DNA of 61,400 nt, filler included, from Sphacelaria rigidula (taxonomy: Eukaryota): assembly GCA_964200075.2 (NCBI GenBank). It is 8 parts of 8 records of this genome, joined end to end, with 100 filler letters (N's around TTAATTAATTAA, not from the genome) between each part and the next. Parts side by side here need not be neighbours in the genome. Positions count along the whole stretch, not along the records: positions 23,066 to 30,652 come from CAXNAA020014202.1; 7 more parts are not named here. One strand, written 5' to 3'. Shown here piece after piece: positions 7,590 through 53,864 of the stretch. A program made the position numbers and the translations under genes. How positions within the stretch are numbered: position 1 is the first letter of the stretch; each line of letters opens with the position of its first letter. The notes below the pieces were generated by a model that was not told where the DNA came from, did no database searches, and saw only the letters and a list, made by a program, of their open reading frames with translations.

Positions 7590-7689
7590 NNNNNNNNNNN
7601 NNNNNNNNNNNNNNNNNNNNNNNNNNNNNNNNNTTAATTAATTAANNNNNNNNNNNNNNNNNNNNNNNNNNNNNNNNNNNNNNNNNNNN
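7590..7689. other. Artificial contig linker (also 15278-15377, 22966-23065, 30653-30752, 38340-38439, 46027-46126, 53714-53813)
   Basis: Each is 100 bp of N flanking TTAATTAATTAA (stops in all six frames); they separate segments of 7589, 7588, 7588 and then 7587 bp. Confidence 0.97.
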
Positions 7690-14550: not shown

Positions 14551-15806
14551 ACAGGTATGGTGGACAAAAAAGGAGGTGTCCCGCACTGCCTGCTGTTGTC
14601 GTGATAGTTTCAATAACTCTTTTTTTTCGGGACGGGTCCGCAGTGTCGAGGGACCGACTCATTTCTCGTCCGGTACGTACACGCCTTGCATTTCGGTATC
14701 TTTGGTTCCATCAGATCTTTCGAACTTTGACTCTGCTGCTCACGCCCTCACTTGTTTTTTCACCAGGCGGCAACCGGATTTTCCTCGGAAAGTAGAACCT
14801 TATTGTAGACTCGTACTGAGAATTGAGGTCGTCAAGGAAGAATCAAGGCACAGAAAATAACCAAACGGGCCTGAGGACTCATGTGGTTATCCATAGCATG
14901 GGATCATCCTCGCAGGTAGCAGAGGTTACAGCGCAGCTAATCCTCATGGAATGGCACCGCGCTGTTTGTGTTTGCTGGGTGATGCTGAAGAAAACGTAAC
15001 CCGTATTTTTATGCTACCTTGATGCTGGTATGGAGAGGGTTGATTAGGTTGACGACAAAAATGAAGGGACGATGTACCTTTTCACGTCTCTGCGCTCGCA
15101 AGCTTGTTGATTCTGTTTTCGATCAACATTCCTCCTCTCCTATATATGACTATGGCATGCAAGATGATGAGTACGCCCATCCCCCCCCCCCCCTTCTGCC
15201 TGGTCCGGCGAGAACCCGGCGTGCTCCGTCCCGGCTTTGTAGGGGCGGACCCCCGATGGGGTTGGCGTCGCTTGGCGNNNNNNNNNNNNNNNNNNNNNNN
15301 NNNNNNNNNNNNNNNNNNNNNTTAATTAATTAANNNNNNNNNNNNNNNNNNNNNNNNNNNNNNNNNNNNNNNNNNNNACTGTTTTGGGCTTGAGCCTCAT
15401 CTCGAAGTTAAACCTCAATTCGCACAATTTGTTGTTATCTGTTCATTTTACCAAAATCTACCGACGCTAGCACTTTCGAGTTTTATCGAAGAGTAGTCGC
15501 GAGAAAAAACCCTTCTGAAGAAGAGTGGTCCAGGCGCCCAGTACTGTAAGTTACGAATGGACCTGCAAACTCCGAATCCGCTCGTAGGCTGGCCCAGCTC
15601 GTACCACGAGTACTGTCTTTACTTGTACTGCCGTCAGGTACAGACCCCAATTCTACTGTCATTTCGTCCGTAATATTGTAAGCATCTTTGTTGTAAAATC
15701 ACTATACTAAAATTGGTATAAACATAGCCGGTAACGGCAAACTTCAAATATACTGGATAAACTGGAGTCCTCATTACCAGTTGCACTCAAACTCCAGTTC
15801 CAGTGT

Positions 15807-22550: not shown

Positions 22551-23324
22551 GCCCAAATGAGTCGCGTCGTGCAGCACGAAACCAGCTCTTACGGCATTTA
22601 TGATCATCGTCTCCGTGCACGTTTTTGGCCGGTTCGGGGGGGGGCTGTCTCGGCAGCAGTCGGTTGTACAAAGCTTCGTTGCGTGACGAAACGCTGATCC
22701 CAAACGTTCAGTGCAAACTTGAGCCCACAAGAAAACGGTCGGTAGCATACTACAGTCGAGTAATTAGGGGGGATACGCGTACATTTTCCTACTTCAACAC
22801 ACACGCGCGCATGTTCTCACACGGGTTTTGGAGTCAGACGCCGAAATATCACACACATGATCTCCGGAATATTTCAATATTTCGAGACTGTGTACAGAGG
22901 GGGGGGGGGGGGGGGGGGGGGTTTTTTTTTTTAAATTTCAAAGGAGAGTATGGAGCATAATTTGTNNNNNNNNNNNNNNNNNNNNNNNNNNNNNNNNNNN
23001 NNNNNNNNNTTAATTAATTAANNNNNNNNNNNNNNNNNNNNNNNNNNNNNNNNNNNNNNNNNNNNAGTCAACGTCGGACCTACAACGGCCCCGACACGCT
23101 CGGGCCGCCGACCCGCCAATATCTGCAGCCGCCGACCGATGTGTGCGCAATGCCAAAGCTACTATGCCCGATCTCGACGGCTCACAGCTACAACGGGTTG
23201 GCTTGGCCGAACGCACACTCCCGGTCGACCTCGATCCACCGCACCAGCGCAACAGCGTCAACACCGCACCATCTCGTACACACAGCGACACACACGACCA
23301 CGACAACGTCGCCCCGGCTCTCAC

Positions 23325-26300
23325 CTGATCTTGCAACAACGTCGCGCGGTTGTGGAGCGTTAAGGCCAACGCAGGGTGCTCCGGGCCGAGAACCTTCTCC
23401 CTGATCGACTGGCACTGCTGGTAGAGGCGTGCGGCCTCGGCCAACTTGCCCTGCAATGTAGTACACGACGCACAACCACCACACAACAGTCAACGTCGGA
23501 CCTACAGCGGCCCCGACACGCTCGGGCCGCCGACCCGCCAACTTCTGCAGCCGCGGACCGATGTGTGCGCAAGGCCATGGCCACCATGCCCGATCTCGAC
23601 GGCTCACAGCTACAACGGGTTGGCTTGGCCGAACGCACACTCGCAGTCAACCATGACCCACCGCACCAGCGCGACAACACCGACACCACACCATCTCGTC
23701 CACGCGTCGACACACACGACCACTACAACGTCGCCCGGGCTCTCACCTGATCTTGCAACAACCGCGCGCGGTTGTTGAGCGTTGTGGCCAAATCAGGGTG
23801 CTCCGGGCTGAGGACCTTCTCCATGATCGACTGGCACTGCTCGTAAAGGCGTGCGGCCTCGGCCAACTTGCCCTGCAATGTAGTACACGACGCACGACCA
23901 CCGCACAGCAGTCAACGTCGGACCTACAACGGCCCCGACACGCTCGGGCCGCCGACCCGCCAACGTCTGCAGCCGCCGACCGATGTGTGCGCAAGGCCAT
24001 GGCCACCATGCCCGATCTCGACGGCTCACAGCTACAACGGGTTGGCTTGGCCGAACGCACACTCCCAGTCAACCATGACCCACCGCACCAGCGCAACAAC
24101 ATCGACACCAAACCATCTCGTCCACACGTCGACACACACGACCATGACAACGTCGCCCCGGCCCTCACCTGAGCTTGCAACAACAACGCGCGGTTACTGA
24201 GCGTTGTGGCCAAATCAGGGTGCTCCGGGCCGAGAACCTTCTCTCTGATCGACACGACCTTGACGGCTCACAGCTACAACGGGTTGGCTTGGCCGAACGC
24301 ACACTCGCAGTCAACCTTGACCCATCGCATTAGCGCGACAACATCAACACGACACCATCTCGTCCACGCGTCGACACACACGACCACTACAACGTCGCCC
24401 GGGCTCTCACCTGATCTTGCAACAACCGCGCGCGGTTGTTGAGCGTTGTGGCCAAATCAGGGTGCTCAGGGCCGAGGACCTTCTCCTTGATCGACTGGCA
24501 CTGCTCGTAAAGGCGCGCGGCCTCGGCCAACTTGCCCTGCAATGTAGTACACGACGCATGGCCACCACACAACAGTCAACGTCGGACCTACAGCGGCCCC
24601 GACACGCTCGGGCCGCCGACCCGCCAACGTCTGCAGCCGCCGACCGATGTGTGCGCAATGCCAAAGCTTCTATGCCCGATCTCGACGGCTCACAGCTACA
24701 ACGGGTTGGATTGGCCGAACGCACACTCCCCGTCGACCCTGACCTACCGCACCAGCGCAACAGCATCAACACCACACCCTCTCGTACACACAGCGACACA
24801 CACGACCATGACAACGTCGCCCCGGCTCTCACCTGATCTTGCAACAACGCCGCGCGGTTGTGGAGCGTTGTGGCCAACGCAGGGTGCTCCGGGCCGAGGA
24901 CCTTCTCCCTGATCGACTGGCACTGCTCGTAAAGGCGCGCGGCCTCGGCCAACTTGCCCTGCAATGTAGTACACGACGCACGACCACCACACAACAGTCA
25001 ACGTCGGACCTACAGCGGCCCCGACACGCTCGGGCCGCCAACCCGCCAACGTCTGCAGCCGCCGACCGATTTGTGCGCAATGCCAAAGCTACTATGCCCG
25101 ATCTCGACGGCTCACAGCTACAACGGGTTGGCTTGGCCGAACGCACATTCGCTGTCAACCTTGACCGATCGCACCAGCGCGACAACATCAACACCACACC
25201 ATCTCGTCCACACGTCGACACACACGACCACGACAACGTCCCCCCGGCTCTCACCTGAGCTAGCAACAACCCCGCGCGGTTGTTGAGCGTTGTGGCCAAG
25301 TAGTACACGACGTATGGCCACCACACAACAGTCAACGTCGGACCTACAACGGCCCCGACACGCTCGGGCCGCCGACCCGCCAACGTCTGCAGCCGCCGAC
25401 CGATGTGTGCGCAGGGCCATGGCCACCATGCCCGATCTCGACGGCTCACAGCTACAACGGGTTGGCTTGGCCGAACGCACACTCGCAGTCAACCATGACC
25501 CACCGCACCAGCGCAACGTCAACACCACACCATCTCGTCCATACGTCGACACACACGACCACGATAACGTCGCCCCGGCTCTCACCTGATTTTGCAACAA
25601 CAACGCGCGGTTGTTGAGCGTTGTGGCCAAATCAGGGTGCTCTGGGCCGAGGACCTTCTCCCTGATCGACTGGCACTGCTGGTAGAGGCGTGCGGCCTCG
25701 TCCAACTTGCTCTGGCGTTCCAACGACAACGGGAGACAGGGTTCCTCAGTGACAATCTCATTCGAAGTATCAAGTCAGGAGATCACGACATCCATTCGAT
25801 GACCCGCACGGTAGTATCAAGACGCTCCAGGCCAAGGGACTCGTCTTAGACATAAGTGTATACTGTACCGTACACGTTTTCTGGACATCCGGCACTAGCC
25901 ATACTCCAGGATTACGGCGTAGACCGTCAAACACACCCACTTGGTAAGATGAAAACGCGAAGGACCCACTGAGATAACACCACAGAGCAGTATCGTAGAT
26001 GGTCGGCACCGTTGAGTCTTGGCATGGATTGGACGCAGTATAGCAGCCAGCGTAGCATCAGCGGAGTTGATGTGTCTTAACGATTGCTCCAAACTTCGAT
26101 TTCACCACTTGTGAAATGACAGCAGCTGCACAATTAACAAATTTTCTCGACCTTCAAGTTTTGCGCGAAACCGGGAAAGCATTAATTGCCGCCCCAATCC
26201 TTCGCCCCGGGCAATAATCTGCTAGTTATATCATCTGGCGCACGTCTACGGTCCTGTGTGGGTCTACGGTATTGTATTAGTAAGGATACAATCTACTGCG

Positions 26301-29300
26301 CAAAGGGTTCATGTTGTACGTTGCGAAGCGAACTTCACAGAAGTCCTACCCTCTCTTTGCCGTCTCAGAGTACCGTCTGCACAGATGTATTTCATGGGTT
26401 TACACTGGCGAATGACGTACACCCAAATATACTCAGTCATTGGTTTACATCAATCGCGGGATAATACAGTGCGAAATGAGAGGACGAGCAACATTCGTTG
26501 CAACGCGTCAACGGACATCAATATGCTTCCCAGAACCCACACCGCACGGACATGAGCATCACCCACGTCCCAAGCGCGAGCAGCGTCGTGCCGATGGAGA
26601 TATCGTTGCTTATGATCAATTTTAGGCTCAGTAAATAAAAGCTACACTATCACGTTTTGCGCCCCTGAAGGTACTCCTTTGGTACAGAATCGTGAAAATG
26701 ATGAAATAGACCACAGACACTTTTTTTTTTTGGGGGGGGGGAAGTCTTCCGCACATCAGTTGGGGATATATGCTGTACCTGTCCTTTGAAATACGTCGGG
26801 AGAAAGAGCGCAGTTCAGCCTCGTACTGTCCATGGGCGAAAAAGATTATTTCCACAAATCTACCGCCTAAACGGTATATTACTCTCGAACATTCGAGTGG
26901 GAGCGTTTCGTTTAGGGTGTTTTTTACTGTTGTTTCTTGGGGGGATTAGTTTCATTCTCGGGGCATTACGGTTAAACAGGGAATATCGCCGTCACATGTC
27001 TCGGGCACTTTGGATTACCTCACTGAGAGGGTGCTAGCCCAAATTTCCGATTCGCTTGGCTCTGAGGTTTCGAGGATTGCCTCCGAAAAATATACAGCCA
27101 GACATGAAAATGCGGTGTCTGCAGTAATCTGAAATGATCTCTAGATTTTCCCACACCGTGTCCACATTTTCCATGTACACCCATTTATATTCGGAGGCAA
27201 TCCTCCAAATCTCGGAGCCAAGTGAATCGGAAAAGTGGGCGAGACGCCTCCCAGTGACATGATACGAGGTGTCTAGCACGTGTAATGGCGATCTGCCCTA
27301 ATTGGGAGGCAGAAGCCGTGCCAAACGTCCCAAAACTGGAAAATATGTCACCCCAAATATCAACCGTAATTACAGACTCGCTCACGCGTATCGAGCCTAA
27401 ACATACGCATCTACAGAACTTCATGACGTTTCCAGGAGTTGGTTCGCCCATAAAGGTTTGCACAGATGTTTCATGGCTCACGACGCAACTCTAGAAGAAA
27501 GAAGCTTTTGTACTTCTTGATTTTGTTCACCGTTTTTCGGGAGTGTCATGGTTCTTGGGGAAACTTCGACCCAGCGGACCCCAGGCAAACGGTCAGAGGT
27601 CATAACGTCAACAAGACTCGTTGATCGAAAATGTCATGTAGACCCATAGTATATGCGTGCAAAGTTTCAGATAACAAATATAAGGGAAAACGACGGTTTC
27701 GGTCAACGCTCTTAGCTTACAAGAGTAGGTAAAATGCGCCGAAAAAGTATCTACGCGATGTCAGGGACAATAACGGTTTCGGTCAGCGCTCTTAGCTCAC
27801 AGAGTTGGTAAAACTCGCTGAAAACGTATCTACGCGGTCAGGGGGCATTCGGCCGACAAAAACGTCATCGGGCACCATCTCTGAAAGTGGGGGGGGGAAC
27901 AGTGTTTAGTGCTTGAACGTCATGTTAGTGTACAACCTCATTTTATAGAATTGACAAAATTGTTGAGTCCTGAGTTACTGATATCGAAACCGCTTCCCTA
28001 CCCTGCACCCTGAGAACCGAGTAGGCGAGCATGGTCCGTTGAATTACTCGAATATAGTACGATCAGTTTTGAAACCTTGGCTGCGGTGTAGTCGGTCTAA
28101 ATTCCCTACAATAGCCAACATTACCTACGGACCAAAAAAGCTCGTTTACGTGAGCTTGGTGTGCCGGTACACATGTGGCTCTATGCTAGAGATTTCTCGA
28201 CTTGTTCACCTGAGTTGCGATCTGGAAAAGGGCGCTGAAAACAGTTTACATGGCATGTTATCAGAACTCAAACGCGTACTTTTGTCATTTTTTGATACGG
28301 CGAGAAGTTCAGAAGGGCCAGAAAAATGTACCCGTCAGCTCAGCAGCCACCCCCAAACCTTTTACGTCCAGCTTCTACCGTAGTGGGGTGATGTGCACGA
28401 CGATAACGGGAAGCCGGCATCATTAGGGAGCGTATTCAGTGGCCGCATCGATTGTAGACCTTGGTACCTTGAAGGTTTGGCAGACAAGATTTCCATATCC
28501 AATGAGAGAGTGTGCCCGGACTTCAGCCGAAGTGCCAGATGGAAAACTCAACCTCGCTTTGGTCTACAGTTAGACTGGATGCTTCACTAGATGCTAGAGA
28601 AGAATTGGAGACAACGGCATTCTTTCAATCAGCTAATATGGGTGCATTTGTAAACAATCAGAATTGTGCAAGGATTTGGCAGGAATTCGCAACCCTGGGT
28701 TGATATCCACGCGCACGACGTATTATTGCGCAGAAGCATCGGGAATCCGTTATTTTCCGGATTAAAATGATATTTGGCTGAAAATACTCAACACAAAGGA
28801 AAGCGATACCTCGAGTCTTCGAGTAGTCGTGGCCGTGCCCGAAATGGGACCATCGTTTGGAGAGTATCGTGACATCGAACCACGCGGAACGGACTGCTTT
28901 CAGATCCATCAGAGTAGATATGTGCGACGTGTGGATACTCCACACCCAGTGCTTTCTCTCCAATGGGGTGGGCCCACGGAACGTACTAGCCTCCGTGTAT
29001 TTACACTGTGTCACGACGACCAATTGGCAATAGCGAGTAGCTCATCAACCACTCCAAAGCTTCAACATATTTTCGACGGGACGAAACCTTTCCACACCTT
29101 GGACAATATATGGTCAATAGTTGCAATACACAAGAACGTACTGCATGAAGTACAGGCCTACTGCGACAACTATCGGCCGGCAATAGTTGCGACAGGCCTA
29201 TAATTTATGCAGTACACTTCTCGTCTTTCGCCTCTATTGACCATGAATTGTCCAGGGTGTGAACCTTTCACAATACCACTACCCATCTTGACAACACCTC

Positions 29301-29907
29301 CAGCCTAAGCGATGGACTTGGCTACAGACAGTCACCGTCGTGACGAGCCAAACTTTCTCGGTGGGAACACCTCGACATTGCTCGGGCCAGATTTCACCTT
29401 TCGTGCTGTGGGCGTTCTTCACCAAAAATCAATAGCTTGCAAAAGCCGTCTCGTCTCCTGATAAAGGTTTGACCCAAGGCCAGAATGGCCGTGACAAACA
29501 TACCAAGAACCCACCTGTCGGTAAAACAGTATACCGATGAGCGCATACGCGTCGGCCACGTCCGTCGACTCGGCTCGACCCAACTCCCCCAGGCTGGCTC
29601 TATATCTCTCCACCTCCAGCTGCTCATTGCCGGCCAGTTCCTCCAGTGACCACCACAAACGACCCAGCGCGTATACGTCTGTGCTCAGTCCCTGACTGTT
29701 GAAAAACTCCCGGACCACAGAAAGTCTGCTCAAGTACTGCGCTTGGCGCCCCACAGCATCCTCGACCAACCCATGCCTCTCCTCACTTCTACACTCAAGT
29801 TTGATGAAATCCAGCAGCAGGTCGTGCACGAAAAAGGAGCCTTCCACCTCATGCAACAGTGCATTCTGCGCTAGGTAATCAGCGTTTTCCTTTGCACTTT
29901 CGTCATC
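23325..29907 (-). CDS. Partial NB-ARC-TPR (NLR-like) gene; exon 29515-29907 then 126-nt TPR exons 25586-25711, 24833-24958, 24411-24536, 23747-23872, 23325-23450
   Basis: The 393-nt phase-0 exon carries LAQNALLHEVEGSFFVHDLLLDF (MHD-type winged-helix motif of STAND ATPases). The 42-aa exons (GKLAEAARLYEQCQSIREKVLGPEHPDLATTLNNRARLLQDQ-type) are kinesin-light-chain-like TPRs with cag| and |gtgag sites. The P-loop exons were not identified. Confidence 0.88.
24169..24253 (-). pseudogene. Truncated TPR exon lacking its acceptor
   Basis: The unit is 180 bp short; the remnant reads SIREKVLGPEHPDLATTLSNRALLLQAQ|gtgagg and is fused to mid-intron sequence. Confidence 0.85.
25255..25299 (-). pseudogene. 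Truncated TPR exon lacking its acceptor
   Basis: The remnant LATTLNNRAGLLLAQ|gtgaga is fused directly to the intron at 'tgtggccaa|gtagtacac'; the unit is ~90 bp short. Confidence 0.85.
26980..27300. mobile_element. Foldback palindrome element (same family as 44115-44810)
   Basis: Inverted arms ttccgattcgcttggctctgaggtttcgaggattgcctccgaa / ttcggaggcaatcctccaaatctcggagccaagtgaatcggaa. Confidence 0.75.
27690..27845. repeat. ~80-bp tandem duplication
   Basis: acggtttcggtca.cgctcttagct.ac...gtatctacgcg occurs twice. Confidence 0.75.
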
Positions 29908-31589
29908 CTGCAGCGATATCGAGTCACCATACACAAGTCTGTGTTAGGCGAGCGCGATCCTACAAGTTTCACGAAACGACGGTTCCGACGGCTCCACCTT
30001 ACAGTAAGATCACTTCACAACGCTGTTGCGGAAGCCTGAATTCTCACTTCCGACACTCGTCTACTGTAAATAGTCTACATGGACGAGGACTCGCATCTTA
30101 TCAACGTTCAACCCATGCCCCCGACCGACGTGCGCCAAACCCAGAACGTCTGGAGGTGAGAAGTGCCACACTGACATCAACTAGCTTCGGCATCAAAAAT
30201 GAAAACAAGCTCTTTTTTCAATCGCCGTGGATTCAAAGGTGTCCTTCAGCTTGTTGTTTGAATTGCAACTGCGAACAACTGGTGGCTTGATCTTGGCTGA
30301 CGTCGAAGTGGACTTACTGCCGACATGGAGGGCACACCTAACGCTTCACCGTACCAGGCAAATATGAGCGCCGGATACCTCAGAATCAAGTGTAAGCTCA
30401 CAGTGCACATGAATCAAGCTATGCCAACCATCGGACATGCCGACTAGAACACCCCTTGCACAGGAATGGGGCATGGCTTGTAAAAATGGTGCTGATTTCG
30501 CAACCCTCACCAGGTAGCACGTATATCAAGAGGTCTGTGGCCGATGCAACGACGCTTGCGAATGAACCGCACCTTCTTCCAGAGCGCGGCCAGCATTGCA
30601 GTTGATGCCCAAACACCACGGGTCAGCACAACCAGACTCAGGAACATGTCCTNNNNNNNNNNNNNNNNNNNNNNNNNNNNNNNNNNNNNNNNNNNNTTAA
30701 TTAATTAANNNNNNNNNNNNNNNNNNNNNNNNNNNNNNNNNNNNNNNNNNNNCCCCCCCCCCCAGCGATTACCCTGACCCGTAACTCAAAAATTCCAAAC
30801 TCCAAATGGGCAGGTACCAGCGGGGAATCTGTGCTACCGTCGGTACCGTCGAATGGCGATGGAGACAGGATTGAGAGCAGTCTCGTGGCTACAGATTTTG
30901 GAGATGGGATCATGGGAGTCAGAAGCCGCAAGGAGCGAATAGACGCCATGCCGGGCATCCACAAAGTCCAGTTTACGTGGGGCTATGCGTTTCTCAATCA
31001 ACAGTGAGGCAAACTAATTCTGGGTTGCTTTTCAGTCACGCCTTGCACTTGATCACAAGCCACACAAAACATGTTGGGGCTTCAGCCGTCCTTGGACACG
31101 TTGTCTCTCATCTTCCATCGAGAGTTTGCTACTACCATTGCTACCGAAAGTTTGCGATCATGCTTACTGGTCTAGTCTTTTGAGGCGTATTATTGGTTGT
31201 TTGTCCCTGCGCAGTAGTGTCTGCAATGCGATTGCTATCGGCGTTTCAGTGTTTGAGGCGACATATATTTTGTCAATTGCCATATTTCTGGTATATGATC
31301 ATTGGTGAGCTCGTTGTGTCGGGTCACAATATACCCATGCGTCTCACACTGAAAGGCATATATATGCTGTCACACTTTCAACCCTCTCAATCCTCCCCAT
31401 CCTCTGAGCGAGTCCGTGGGCTCAAGGGATCAATCCATCTCCCCCGTGATGCACACCTTACGTTGTGATACGGCGAATGGGATCAGCACTCCCGCACCAT
31501 TTCGATTCTGGTCAAACGAAGTCTTGTTACTATTCATGTCAACATGTTTTTAACGCCGGAAATCATATACTTGCCAGAAAAAAAACAAA

Positions 31590-37790: not shown

Positions 37791-38439
37791 CCTGCCAAAG
37801 GTCTACGACTCCGTACAGGCTGGGCCAGCCTACAAGCGGATTTGTACTTTGCAGGCGAATTCGCAATTTTGTTTCTTGGAGTTGNNNNNNNNNTTGCCAA
37901 TCAGGGGGGCATGAAGAAAAGCTGTCTGTGTGTTCCTTATGTTTTTTTTTTTTTTCGTGAATTAAGGGCATTTTACTGAAACCTCAAAACTGATTTTTGC
38001 CCTCATTCACGAAAAAAAAATCGTTAGGACCTCACACACCGCTTTCCTTCATGCACTGTTGATTGTCCGTATCAAATTTCACTTTCCAACTCCAAGACAA
38101 AAATTGCGAATTTACATTTGAAAAACCGAGGCGGTAGAAATTCGGAACAGTATTTTGCAGGCCGTTTATCGGCCCATGTTTGGTGTTTGTGGGTTGAAAC
38201 TTTGACTAATGCCGAGTTAGCCCCCCCACAAAAAGTGCACCGGCACCATCCAACAAACCGGCTGCGATCCCACTATTGGGCTCGTTTGCAGCAATTTCGC
38301 CCACATGATGGGCGTGTAGCAGTCCGAAATCAGCTATAANNNNNNNNNNNNNNNNNNNNNNNNNNNNNNNNNNNNNNNNNNNNTTAATTAATTAANNNNN
38401 NNNNNNNNNNNNNNNNNNNNNNNNNNNNNNNNNNNNNNN

Positions 38440-42214: not shown

Positions 42215-44030
42215 CGTCTATTGGAAAATGCGGCAAGGCTGTCGGCCACTGCAATCTCCACCTATGTGTTGTTCTATGGTAGACTGCCACTTCTGTGATG
42301 TCTCGTTTCTCTCCGGGAATCAATCGAGCCTCTCGTGTAATTTTTGGTGGTGATTACAACATCTGTTGCGGCGAGCTCACTGGCGAACTGTAATTGGTAT
42401 TCCGTAGCAGAGTGTCTCGCAGATACTTGGAGACTGCAGCAAGGCTGTTGGCCACTACAATCCCCACCTGCATGCTACTTTGTCGCAGAGTACCATTCAC
42501 TACGTCATAGCCTGTCTTTTTGCGGGGTTTGAACGTTCTATCAGTAAAGTCTACGGTCACTGGTATTCCGCAGCAGAGTTTCTCGCAGACACGTGGAGAA
42601 TGCAGCAAGGCTGTTGGCCACTGCAATCCCCATTTGCATGCTACTTCGTCTCAGAGTACCACTTATTATATTATGCTGTCTTTTTGCCGGGTTAGAGCAT
42701 AACCTTCCATCAGTGTACTTACGGCCACTGGTATTCCGTAGCAGAGTTTCTCGCAGATACTTGGAGAATGCAGCAAGGCTGTTGGCCACTGCAATCCCCC
42801 TACCTGCATGCTACTTTGTCCCAGAATACACTTATTGCGTCATAGACCGTCTTTTCGCTGGGTTTGAGTTTTTTTATCAGTCGAAATACCGTACGGTCAC
42901 TGGTATTCCGTAGCAGAGTTTCTCGCAGACACTTGGAGAATGCAGCAAGGCTGTTGGCCACTGTAATCCCCATCTGCATGCTGATTTGTCAGAGAGTATA
43001 CCACTTACTATATTATATATATATATTGCGGGGTTTGAGCCTTCTATCAGTCGAAATACCGTACGGTCACTGGTATTCCGTAGCAGAGTTTCTCGCAGAC
43101 ACTTGGAGAATGCGGCAAGGCTGTTGGCCACCGCAATCCCCCCAGCTGCATACTACTTTGTCGCAGAATACAGTACCACTTATTACGTCATGCTATAGCT
43201 GTCTTTTTGCGGGGTTTGAGCCTTTTATCAGTAGAAATACCGTACGATCACTGGTATTCCGTGGCGGAGTTTCTCGCAGACACTTGGAGAATGCGGCAAG
43301 GCTGTTGGCCACCGCAATCCCCCCATCTGTATGCTACTTTGCCGCAGAATACAGTACCACTTATTACGTCATGCTACAGCTGTCTTTTTGCGGGGTTTGA
43401 GCGTTCTATCAGTATATAGTCTCGCAGACACTTGGAGAATGCGGCAAGGCTGTTGGCCACCGCAATCCCCCCATCTGTATGCTACTTTGTCGCAGAATAC
43501 CACTTATTACGTCATGCTATAGCTGTCTTTTTGCGGGGTTTGAGCCTTTTATCAGTCGAAATACCGTACGGTCACTGTTATTCCGTAGCAGAGTTTCTCG
43601 CAGACACTTGGAGAATGCGGCAAGGCTGTTGGCCACTGCAATCCCCCTACCTGCATGCTACTTTGTCGCAGAATACAGTACCACTTATTACGTCATGCTA
43701 CAGCTGTCTTTTCGCGGGGTTTGAGCGTTCTATCAGTGTATAGTCTACGGTCACGGGTATCCCAGCAGAGTTTCTCGCAGGCATTTGGAGAATGCGGCAA
43801 GGCTGTTGGCCACCGCAATCTCCACTTGTATATAGAATTTTATGATAAATTGCCACTTTTGTGAAGTCATCTATCTTCCAGAATCGAGCCCTTCACCACT
43901 ACTACTATAAGTTAGGTGTGATAATTTGCGGCGATACCTACTTGGTATTCCAGCAGAGTTTCTCGTCGCAGACGCTTGGAGAATGCGGCCTGACTGTTGG
44001 CCACTGCAATCTCCACCTGCATACCACTTT
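42215..44030. repeat. Tandem satellite, ~11 units of ~150-205 bp
   Basis: Core ttggagaatgc(a/g)gcaaggctgttggccac at ~42221, 42428, 42593, 42761, 42933, 43103, 43284, 43432, 43608, 43786 and 43976. Confidence 0.95.
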
Positions 44031-44114
44031 GTCAAAGAGTATCACTTACTTATTACTTTATCATGCCGTTTTGCGCATTTCCTTCTTCCCATCCGATACC
44101 CTCCTACTCGGCAT

Positions 44115-45966: not shown

Positions 45967-46323
45967 GAGTGATGCTACGGTAGGGGTACAGAAATAATTT
46001 CTGAGATTAGAATTGTTAGGAGGCCCNNNNNNNNNNNNNNNNNNNNNNNNNNNNNNNNNNNNNNNNNNNNTTAATTAATTAANNNNNNNNNNNNNNNNNN
46101 NNNNNNNNNNNNNNNNNNNNNNNNNNGGACGCCTTCCGTGGTCACAGGCTAGCAAAAAAACAAAAAACAAAATAGACCCAGATTAAAACTCACAAAACGC
46201 TTGCAGTGTGGTACGCTTCACGGTCAATTTGGTATTTTAGTGGCCCCGTGTATTAACTTCTCCGTGATGGAAAACATTTTTTTTGGCGTTTGGTTGCTTG
46301 GTTGCGGTGTTTGTCAAAAACAG

Positions 46324-52300: not shown

Positions 52301-52497
52301 AGCCCGTGGCTCCTGTGCCGGCCGCAAAGGCTACCAAGAAACCTGCTGCCAAAGCCAAACCGGCGGCTAAGCCTAAAGCGGCAGCCAAGCCTAAAGCGGC
52401 GTCCCGCAAGCCCAAGAGTAAGGCCATGAGCGATTCCGAAACTGAGGATGACTTCAACTCGGATGCAATGTCCGATGTCGCTGACGCCAACAGCCCG
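46324..52497 (+). CDS. TOP2: DNA topoisomerase II, C-terminal part; exons 46324-46464, 46953-47073, 47897-48006, 48336-48394, 48986-49122, 49573-49704, 49946-50104, 50552-50857, 51459-51542, 52303-52497
   Basis: Phase-compatible splicing yields FKLESSVSTTNMVLFD, IMEEFYTLRTDFYNRRK, LDNK|VRFILAVVEG, GYDYLLGMKLWSLTLE and DLWIADLDAL, then a K/A/D-rich tail. Confidence 0.93.
47255..47555. mobile_element. Intact MITE family A in a TOP2 intron
   Basis: Terminal inverted repeats of ~29 bp: aacaatgttttcgtgagattgagagtaga / tctactctcaatctcacgaaaacgttgtt. Confidence 0.88.
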
Positions 52498-53864
52498 GTG
52501 AGTCATCGGTTGGGGTATGAACAATAACACATGACGTATTTTGAGGTGGTGAGATGATGCTCTTCAGACGTCGGACCCACTTCATGACCGATGAATGTGA
52601 GGTAAAACATTGGGCAACCAACCCTAAAGAAATGATATGTACGCGCTGCAACGGCTGTTGAGGTATTCCTTCTACTATAATTGTACAGGTATTGGGCAAA
52701 CTATCCATTCTTGTCTTCGTGTTCACCGTCCTCCCCTTTCCCGAAGAAATGTCACTTTTTGACATGATGGCCCTTTCCGATGGAAGTAGTGCAGACGACT
52801 TTGCACTCTGATCTCTGGTGCTCGAATTCTCCACAACCCCAGCATCCCACCTAGCCTTTCCTACCACCTTTCTGGCCCTTGCTGACAGCAAGAGCGGCAG
52901 TCGTTGGTCCGGAAGCCTTCTTGGCTGCCTCAGCCTCAGCTTTCGCTACCGCCGCAGTGTCCTGTAGGTGACTTTGACGTGACGCAATGGTGCGTACCAA
53001 TTCCGCACGGGTGATAAACCCGTCACATCACATCGTATGGGCTTCGATCTCATACACGAGATTAGATGCTACCGGCGCTATAATAAGGATGTTCACGCCT
53101 GCCCGGCTGGATGCACGGTTCGAACAGAGTACGGTAGCAATTGACTTCGTATATGCGATTACAAATAGCGTTGCTTTGTGGGTACTCAAGTTTGGGGATG
53201 AAATTAGTCGGCCCCACCTAACTATCTGTATCGTTCGGGCTAACTATAGTCGGACTGAAGGTCGGCCTAGTACTTAACTGCACTTGCTGTGTGACCGATA
53301 TCGTACTAAGGTTCAGATGAAGCTCTGCCTCGGCCGTTGAAGCACCATGTGCATATCGTGTCTAATCGTACGCTGAGATCTGATTTTGGTTTCAAGTTGG
53401 AGTACTCTGCCTTCAATATTCACACATCCACACACACGTACTTCCTCTGTCCCATAAGTCTGTATCGTTACGGACGTTTAATCGTGTGGGTATTTCAATG
53501 CTCACGATCATGCTGCAGTTGGGCTCGTTAGAGAGATAACGTGCAGACGAAGCTGACTGAGAAAAAAAAAGAAGAAAAAAAACTTGTTTTCAATACTAGA
53601 ATCATATAAAAATATACCCGATTTTGGACGTTTCGACGTCGAGCACTGGCGATTACATGCTGAAAAGTTGTCAGATGGGGGTGTGTAAATTAACGTCACG
53701 GATATATCCAAATNNNNNNNNNNNNNNNNNNNNNNNNNNNNNNNNNNNNNNNNNNNNTTAATTAATTAANNNNNNNNNNNNNNNNNNNNNNNNNNNNNNN
53801 NNNNNNNNNNNNNCCCCCCCCCCCTACTTTAATGTGGATTGATCACGTGATCTTCAGGATAAAC

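Follow-up and report, generated by a model that had tools for sequence, protein, structure and literature searches.

The window, meaning the whole stretch of 61,400 nucleotides from the Sphacelaria rigidula assembly that was analysed, is a chain of distinct contigs of about 7.6 kb, of which C14202 occupies positions 23066-30652. N-TTAATTAATTAA-N spacers join these contigs of nearly equal size, the numbering of which probably runs in order of length, and adjacency in the window is not genomic. As the window consists of separate contigs joined together, the flanking genes are uninformative on the locus studied here, which is an array of TPR exons on the minus strand of C14202. The features of the window that concern this locus are listed below.

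7590-7689, 15278-15377, 22966-23065, 30653-30752, 38340-38439, 46027-46126, 53714-53813: N-TTAATTAATTAA-N spacers
30573..30652, minus strand: upstream coding exon in the NB-ARC helical region, of which the contig end leaves only the 3' end
29515..29907, minus strand: 393-nt phase-0 exon (open reading frame, 131 aa), winged-helix/linker region after NB-ARC
25712..29514, minus strand: single-copy intron of 3803 nt, from the winged-helix exon to TPR exon 1 (joint 25711/29515 in run X6)
23066..25711, minus strand: whole tandem array of the 422-bp exon+intron unit, about 91% identity
25586..25711, minus strand: TPR exon 1, intact, residue 37 = L (codon 25601-25603), TPR_10 and TPR_12 above cut-off
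25255..25299, minus strand: unit 2, truncated relic with codons 28-42 and the donor, residue 37 = G; acceptor and codons 1-27 deleted
24833..24958, minus strand: TPR exon 3, intact, residue 37 = A (codon 24848-24850), Pfam-scanned
24411..24536, minus strand: TPR exon 4, intact, residue 37 = R (codon 24426-24428)
24169..24252, minus strand: unit 5, truncated relic with codons 15-42 and the donor, residue 37 = L
23747..23872, minus strand: TPR exon 6, intact, residue 37 = R (codon 23762-23764)
23325..23450, minus strand: TPR exon 7, intact, residue 37 = T (codon 23340-23342), Pfam-scanned

The array reaches the contig end at 23066 and the 3' end of the gene is therefore missing, while at the other end the contig stops inside the exon preceding the 393-nt exon, and the NB-ARC exon of the window's own gene is absent from the assembly. 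The gene layout can be read from a near copy on another contig, C5738 (G000:C5738:1049-10885), which matches the window locus over 5370 bases at 95.4%; besides an NB-ARC exon (Pfam E=2e-15), it has the 393-nt exon and an array of eight TPR exons, all intact, so that NB-ARC is located upstream of the TPR array in one gene. The partial exon at 30573..30652 is a 95% match to C5738, where it is placed after the NB-ARC exon. At the amino acid level, the 393-nt exon is 95% identical to its counterpart in C5738 and 77% to that in C1255; it had no Pfam match of its own, and it contains an HD motif that we take to be MHD-like. A Pfam scan of 56 ORFs, selected from 286 in the window, gave no match. Inverted-repeat and short duplicated elements in the long intron (26978-27299, 27683-27843, 29093-29261) have a very high summed depth in the DNA runs and are probably high-copy MITE-like elements.

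The predicted splice junctions are used in the RNA-like runs X6 and X7, the RNA nature of which is a guess and the contigs of which derive from other alleles. Among the joints listed, GT-AG joints spanning 296, 665 and 3803 nt were found in X6/X7 and none in X1/X3, and the joint 29907/30573, also with GT-AG ends, is present in both X6 and X7. Contigs from these two runs lead from 29515 to a TPR exon and also link TPR exons to each other over 296 nt, again with GT-AG ends, so that spliced joints tie the exon at 30573..30652 through the 393-nt exon to the TPR exons. The depth over the 393-nt exon in X6/X7 is about 400, as compared to about 5 in the introns. The winged-helix exon is joined to an exon-1-type start in X6 and to another start in X7, which might reflect alternative splicing of the TPR exons, in a comparison between different samples and with ambiguous placement of the short contigs.

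The intact unit consists of a 126-nt phase-0 exon and a 296-nt intron, which gives a period of 422. Five of the seven units have the AG-126 nt-GT form, their exons are free of stops and frameshifts, and Pfam TPR_10 and TPR_12 scored above cut-off in all three TPR exons scanned (1, 3 and 7). In unit 5, the acceptor and half of the upstream intron are deleted, with a period of 242 instead of 422. The junction of this deletion (24244-24262) shows short microhomology and a few filler bases that resemble nearby intron; an AG in the same interval could open an in-frame 90-nt exon, for which no splice evidence was seen. Within each unit, the intron has patches of variable sites (at about 86-107 and 160-178) between near-invariant blocks, and one intron site shows all four bases among the seven units. 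Two other repeats lie on other contigs of the window: a tandem array with periods 181 and 324 at 42384-44056, where the ORF that was scanned had no Pfam match, and an 18-bp repeat at 52352-52400 that reads as Lys/Pro/Ala-rich units, also with no Pfam match, and presumably resembles a histone H1 tail.

We compared the window locus to the near copy and to related units elsewhere in the assembly. The long intron differs between C14202 and C5738 at 148 of 3789 sites (3.9%). When differences in the runs were checked, 26 of 35 agreed with the C5738 bases, mostly at full depth, and two control stretches were single-copy. The two contigs are either divergent alleles, in which case C5738 may be an allele under balancing selection, or a recent duplicate lacking in other individuals. 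Units cluster largely by array, and since the intron distances within the arrays (0.079 and 0.061) exceed the distance of 3.9% that separates the loci in their single-copy intron, the order of units is not simply inherited. The consistency index is 0.67. Among 903 informative pairs, 413 are incompatible, and a permutation test for spatial clustering as a sign of recombination was not significant (p=0.14). This pattern would fit unequal exchange and conversion. A solitary exon+intron unit of the same young subfamily was found at G000:C778:14519-14841 (83% over 338 bases, one codon missing), with no TPR array or NB-ARC gene around it on that contig; it is a unit relocated elsewhere.

Each 126-nt exon encodes a helix B and, across a loop, the helix A that follows it, in a 42-residue TPR of the kinesin light chain (KLC) type. 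Position 1 of Pfam TPR_1 corresponds to exon residue 29, and residues 30/33/34/37/40/41 are therefore TPR positions 2/5/6/9/12/13. These six are the ligand-contacting positions according to the accessible text of PMC1261162, which gives position 6 as a conserved Asn and 2, 5, 9, 12, 13, 33 and 34 as the most variable, concave positions; the invariant N34 of the exons agrees with that Asn. For a structural view, four repeats of the relative P0001 were modelled rather than the spliced product of the window itself. P0001 was the sole match in one protein search, an NB-ARC-TPR protein with a brown-algal source label that may not be independent of this genome. The model (pLDDT 89) places helix B at residues 2-20 and helix A at residues 26-41, and thus the variable residues 30/33/37/40/41 within helix A, and it superimposes on KLC1 with a TM of 0.93 at 39% identity. 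The repeat length of 42 residues, the long A and B helices and a groove lined by A helices are all seen in this model, as in 42PR/KLC-type repeats.

The KLC1 residues named in the accessible part of PMC5642895 were placed on the alignment by their spacing. N259/A262/L263/R266 fall on exon residues 33/36/37/40 and N302/V305/L306 on 34/37/38, while R285 falls on residue 17 and N343, which discriminates JIP1, on residue 33. The TPR register and the KLC1 pocket agree with the placement of residues 30/33/37/40/41 in the ligand groove that the first-pass annotation had proposed. Since residue 17 occupies the position of R285, this helix-B residue is probably turned to the groove as well. In KLC1, two adjacent A helices together make up the pocket. 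This speaks against the proposed specificity code of one ligand per repeat and points to a combinatorial surface instead.

In gene order on the minus strand, codon 37 reads TTG,GGG,GCG,CGG,TTG,CGG,ACG, residue 33 is N,N,H,N,S,N,H and residue 41 is N,A,D,D,A,D,D, with single changes at residues 30 and 40. These lists are exactly those of the first-pass annotation, and the codons on both sides of codon 37 (35, 36, 38 and 39) are unchanged in all seven units, as it had also noted. G37, S33, both A41 and L40 all belong to the relic units 2 and 5; among the five intact exons residue 41 is N,D,D,D,D and residue 40 is invariant. The description of the variation as confined to these residues on one helix face goes too far. 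Residue 17, which was absent from the original list, is R,-,R,K,R,M,R (four codons, three amino acids), residue 27 is D/A, and residues 1, 4, 11 and 22 also vary among the window units.

Because exon and intron were duplicated together and are about 91% identical, the array contains an internal neutral control. We used this intron as a yardstick: it has 55 extra alleles at 270 sites, or 0.204 per site. The first two bases of codon 37 have 5 extra alleles (Poisson, multiplied by 42 codons, p=0.003), and these 5 are all retained in the five intact exons alone (p=0.001); the Poisson tests assume independent bases, and double changes such as GG to TT therefore inflate both figures somewhat. None of the 269 adjacent intron pairs has 5 extra alleles (maximum 3), and codon 37 also exceeds all of them in parsimony steps (8 vs 7). 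In C5738, codon 37 alone was not significant (p=0.35 after multiplication by 42). A groove set of residues 30/33/34/37/40/41, i.e., 6 of the 42 codons, was taken from the literature and fixed in advance. This set holds 12 of the 19 extra first- and second-base alleles in the window (p=1e-6), 9 of 16 in the intact window exons (p=1e-4) and, when C5738 is taken by itself, 7 of 19 there (p=0.013). For the five intact window exons, pN is 0.225 in the groove set and 0.041 at other residues, as compared to a pS of 0.099 and an intron distance of 0.079.

We also examined TPR exons across the assembly, in which 13 NB-ARC matches were identified. Of 32 contigs examined, 24 carry TPR exons, at least 210 in all, as 150 of 284 candidates were scored in the genome search and the collection covers exons of the intact length that pass the profile threshold. 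Of these exons, 205 are distinct and open, after 4 with stops and 1 duplicate had been left out. On each of the 24 contigs, the exons of intact length are on one strand only, and 113 of 186 intervals between exons are 410-429 bp. Two large, older TPR arrays, G000:C3:15248-24861 and C5394:6608-10829, with 25 and 18 exons, have near-identical exons in common with the order kept, and a block is duplicated inside the C3 array.

The 205 exons were analysed with our own codon model on one fixed tree, ignoring recombination. Overall omega is 0.45 and the top class has an omega of 1.10 (M7/M8 p=4e-7; M8a/M8 p=0.03). The fastest class, with omega about 1.1, comprises residues 4, 8, 17, 20, 27, 30, 33, 37, 40 and 41. 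Site tests were significant for residues 8, 30 and 40, and not significant for residues 33 and 37. An even spread of variation in a larger sample, the outcome named in advance as contradicting the proposal, did not occur among these exons. The helix-B residues 4, 8 and 20 evolve as fast as the groove residues, and residue 8 gives, with residue 40, the strongest site signal; they may mark a second binding surface or relaxed constraint. Among the 16 arrays with at least 5 exons, groove pN exceeds pS in 5, chiefly those with a low pS, one more has a ratio of 1.00 and the other 10 are below. Selection and relaxed constraint are hard to tell apart across the family. The diversifying selection suggested by the first-pass annotation is supported within the two young arrays, where groove pN exceeds both pS and the intron distance, and the support is weak family-wide.

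We consider it likely that the array encodes the sensor domain of a brown-algal type of NB-ARC-TPR (NLR-like) receptor, in which selection retains groove variants. The exon and its intron were duplicated together as a unit of 422 bp. Through unequal crossing-over and gene conversion, units would be gained, lost and kept alike, and point mutations of the usual kind would arise throughout, with purifying selection clearing the scaffold positions and selection for new binding specificities retaining mutations in the groove, most strongly at residue 37. All exons are in phase 0, and gain, loss or skipping of a unit therefore keeps the reading frame and rearranges the groove. Judging from the family, ligand binding in the groove may switch NB-ARC on in a defence or non-self response, and the receptor may have a ligand-triggered immune function. 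The variation is real, it faces the groove, and selection is its most likely cause.

An alternative, which we judge unlikely, is that relaxed constraint alone is at work, so that exposed groove residues drift neutrally, codon 37 represents a lucky tail and the window copy may be decaying. The family-wide top class omega of 1.10, the codon 37 site test without significance, the groove pN that falls short of pS in 10 of the 16 arrays and the two broken units among the seven of the window are all in line with such drift. It does not explain why groove sites in the young arrays exceed the neutral intron rate about five-fold (12 vs 2.4 expected, p=1e-5), nor why codon 37 outranks every intron pair, although the Poisson figures are weakened by multi-base mutations and uneven intron rates; the five intact exons are free of stops and frameshifts. 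Selection on groove variants remains our preferred reading. Codon 37 lies in a quasi-palindrome, which is perfect in two exons:

24420..24441, and the same at 23756-23777, no strand: perfect 22-bp palindrome over codons 32-39, with an 11-base inverted-repeat arm

The palindrome is perfect when codon 33 is AAC and codon 37 is CGG. Template switching or slippage could thereby write CGG, TTG or GCG into codon 37, with selection sorting the products, a bias that we regard as very improbable. The 11-base arm given by CGG is the longest of the 16 possible NNG codons, and a local template exists for 3 of 5 derived codons, with TTG and GCG being copies of adjacent codons. Among the 15 young units, Arg is written three times at codon 37, each time as CGG and never as AGG, though AGG is a transition from GGG. 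These three copies may, however, have common ancestry, and the pattern was noticed after the fact. Arg is encoded by AGA/AGG in 18 of 30 exons of other arrays, and other arrays vary at codon 37 with no palindrome. The loop bases that are free to vary, the third positions of codons 35 and 36, are almost fixed, intron variants are not enriched in inverted repeats (2/95 vs 3/190), and no general template-switch signal was found in the introns. The broader version, in which codon 37, as the chief specificity codon of the receptor subfamily, is located at the loop and template switching in replication or repair thereby raises the supply of residue-37 alleles, possibly somatically, in addition to unit shuffling, is quite improbable in our view; if true, it would mean that a mutation hot spot is built into an immune exon.

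The variable repeats of diversity-generating retroelements (DGR) change at first and second bases with the third base fixed, and codon 37 shows the same form. A dedicated diversifier that targets the groove codons, by DGR-like retrohoming or somatic hypermutation, nevertheless has a probability close to negligible. Only 1 A occurs among the 30 first and second bases of codon 37, where GGG is the commonest state, and intron adenines are no more variable than other bases, on which grounds adenine mutagenesis of the DGR type was rejected. The search for a template repeat (40 of 151 candidates scored) gave as closest copies the two arrays and the degenerate C778 unit; the latter, the only close solitary copy found, has GGG at codon 37 and splice sites, and is not an adenine-rich template. 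Local hypermutation was rejected on the third positions of codons 33-41, where the count of extra alleles is 0 for the intact exons of the window (five) and 1 for those of C5738 (eight). With quiet third positions near codon 37 and no adenine bias, selection on ordinary mutations fits better than the targeted mutation that the first-pass annotation had offered as its other option. Long conversion tracts from old paralogues are also an unlikely source of the codon 37 states, since synonymous states of the subfamily stay fixed nearby: codon 35 is CGC in 15 of 15 young units and T-ending in 162 of 205 exons. Somatic recombination has been proposed for the NB-ARC-TPR family (PMC3341825), whereas the available text of PMC11378527 favours alternative splicing and states that neither somatic recombinant loci nor a recombinase has been reported.

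The locus has close parallels in published systems. As far as described in the accessible text of PMC3341825 (Zambounis et al.), Ectocarpus has 13 NB-ARC genes whose TPR exons encode 42 aa, some of them inactivated, and which show positive selection, with an M8 omega of 2.8 at site 31 and M3 sites 15, 19, 22 and 31 in the numbering of that paper. The similarities include NB-ARC with a C-terminal TPR array, 126-nt phase-0 exons that each hold a single repeat, local exon duplication, and introns in which exons that are truncated or inactivated lie on the coding strand (here units 2 and 5). Positive selection on TPR exons in Ectocarpus has its counterpart here in the excess within the two young arrays, with a weaker signal family-wide. 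Here, in contrast, exon and intron are co-duplicated at about 91%; in the same portion of that paper, the TPR ligand sites are given as n.d. in table 1 and not placed on a structure, and direct evidence for a ligand-triggered defence response is said to be lacking. Fungal NB-ARC-TPR NLRs of high internal conservation, such as Podospora Pa_2_10340, also have near-identical KLC-type TPRs with concerted evolution and variation in repeat number, and their positively selected, polymorphic sites are on the concave face (PMC4986451, PMC13449251), as mapped on a KLC model (PMC4986451); the parallel between fungal NB-ARC-TPR proteins and brown algae has been drawn (PMC13449251). According to the passages available, their repeats do not have one exon each, whereas the unit here has an intron of its own, so that splicing can leave it out.

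The KLC TPR domain (42PR; PDB 5OJ8, 3NF1, 3ZFW) has the same 42-residue repeat and fold, and in the part of PMC5642895 at hand its cargo pocket corresponds to exon residues 33, 34, 36, 37, 38 and 40, with a contact at 17, and JIP1 binding turns on whether the residue equivalent to 33 is Asn or Ser. KLC is a conserved transport adaptor with no NB-ARC, and thus serves as a structural template only. Finally, TALE/PPR repeats and DGR variable repeats have a few variable residues per near-identical repeat, as is the case here. In contrast to TALE/PPR, no code of one ligand per repeat was seen in the array, and it differs from DGR in having no adenine bias and no template repeat among the candidates scored.

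The family, its exon structure and selection on its TPR exons are already published for Ectocarpus, as is groove-facing selection for fungal NB-ARC-TPRs, and the gene in the window is an ordinary member of a published family of candidate immune receptors. No brown-algal paper that names these groove residues was found in the literature searched; the likeliest source, the survey of brown algal NB-TPR genes by Teng et al. in 2023 (Plant J, doi 10.1111/tpj.16131), was outside that search. This survey reportedly describes diversifying selection on TPR exons. If it already maps the selected sites to the concave face, as it may, the modest novelty of the present findings would be gone. The practical value of the locus lies in the co-duplicated intron as a yardstick, in two close versions of the locus in one assembly and in variable residues at pocket positions of a solved fold. 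Residues 33 and 37, along with 17, 30 and 40, are candidates for swaps in tests of what NB-ARC-TPR proteins from brown algae bind.
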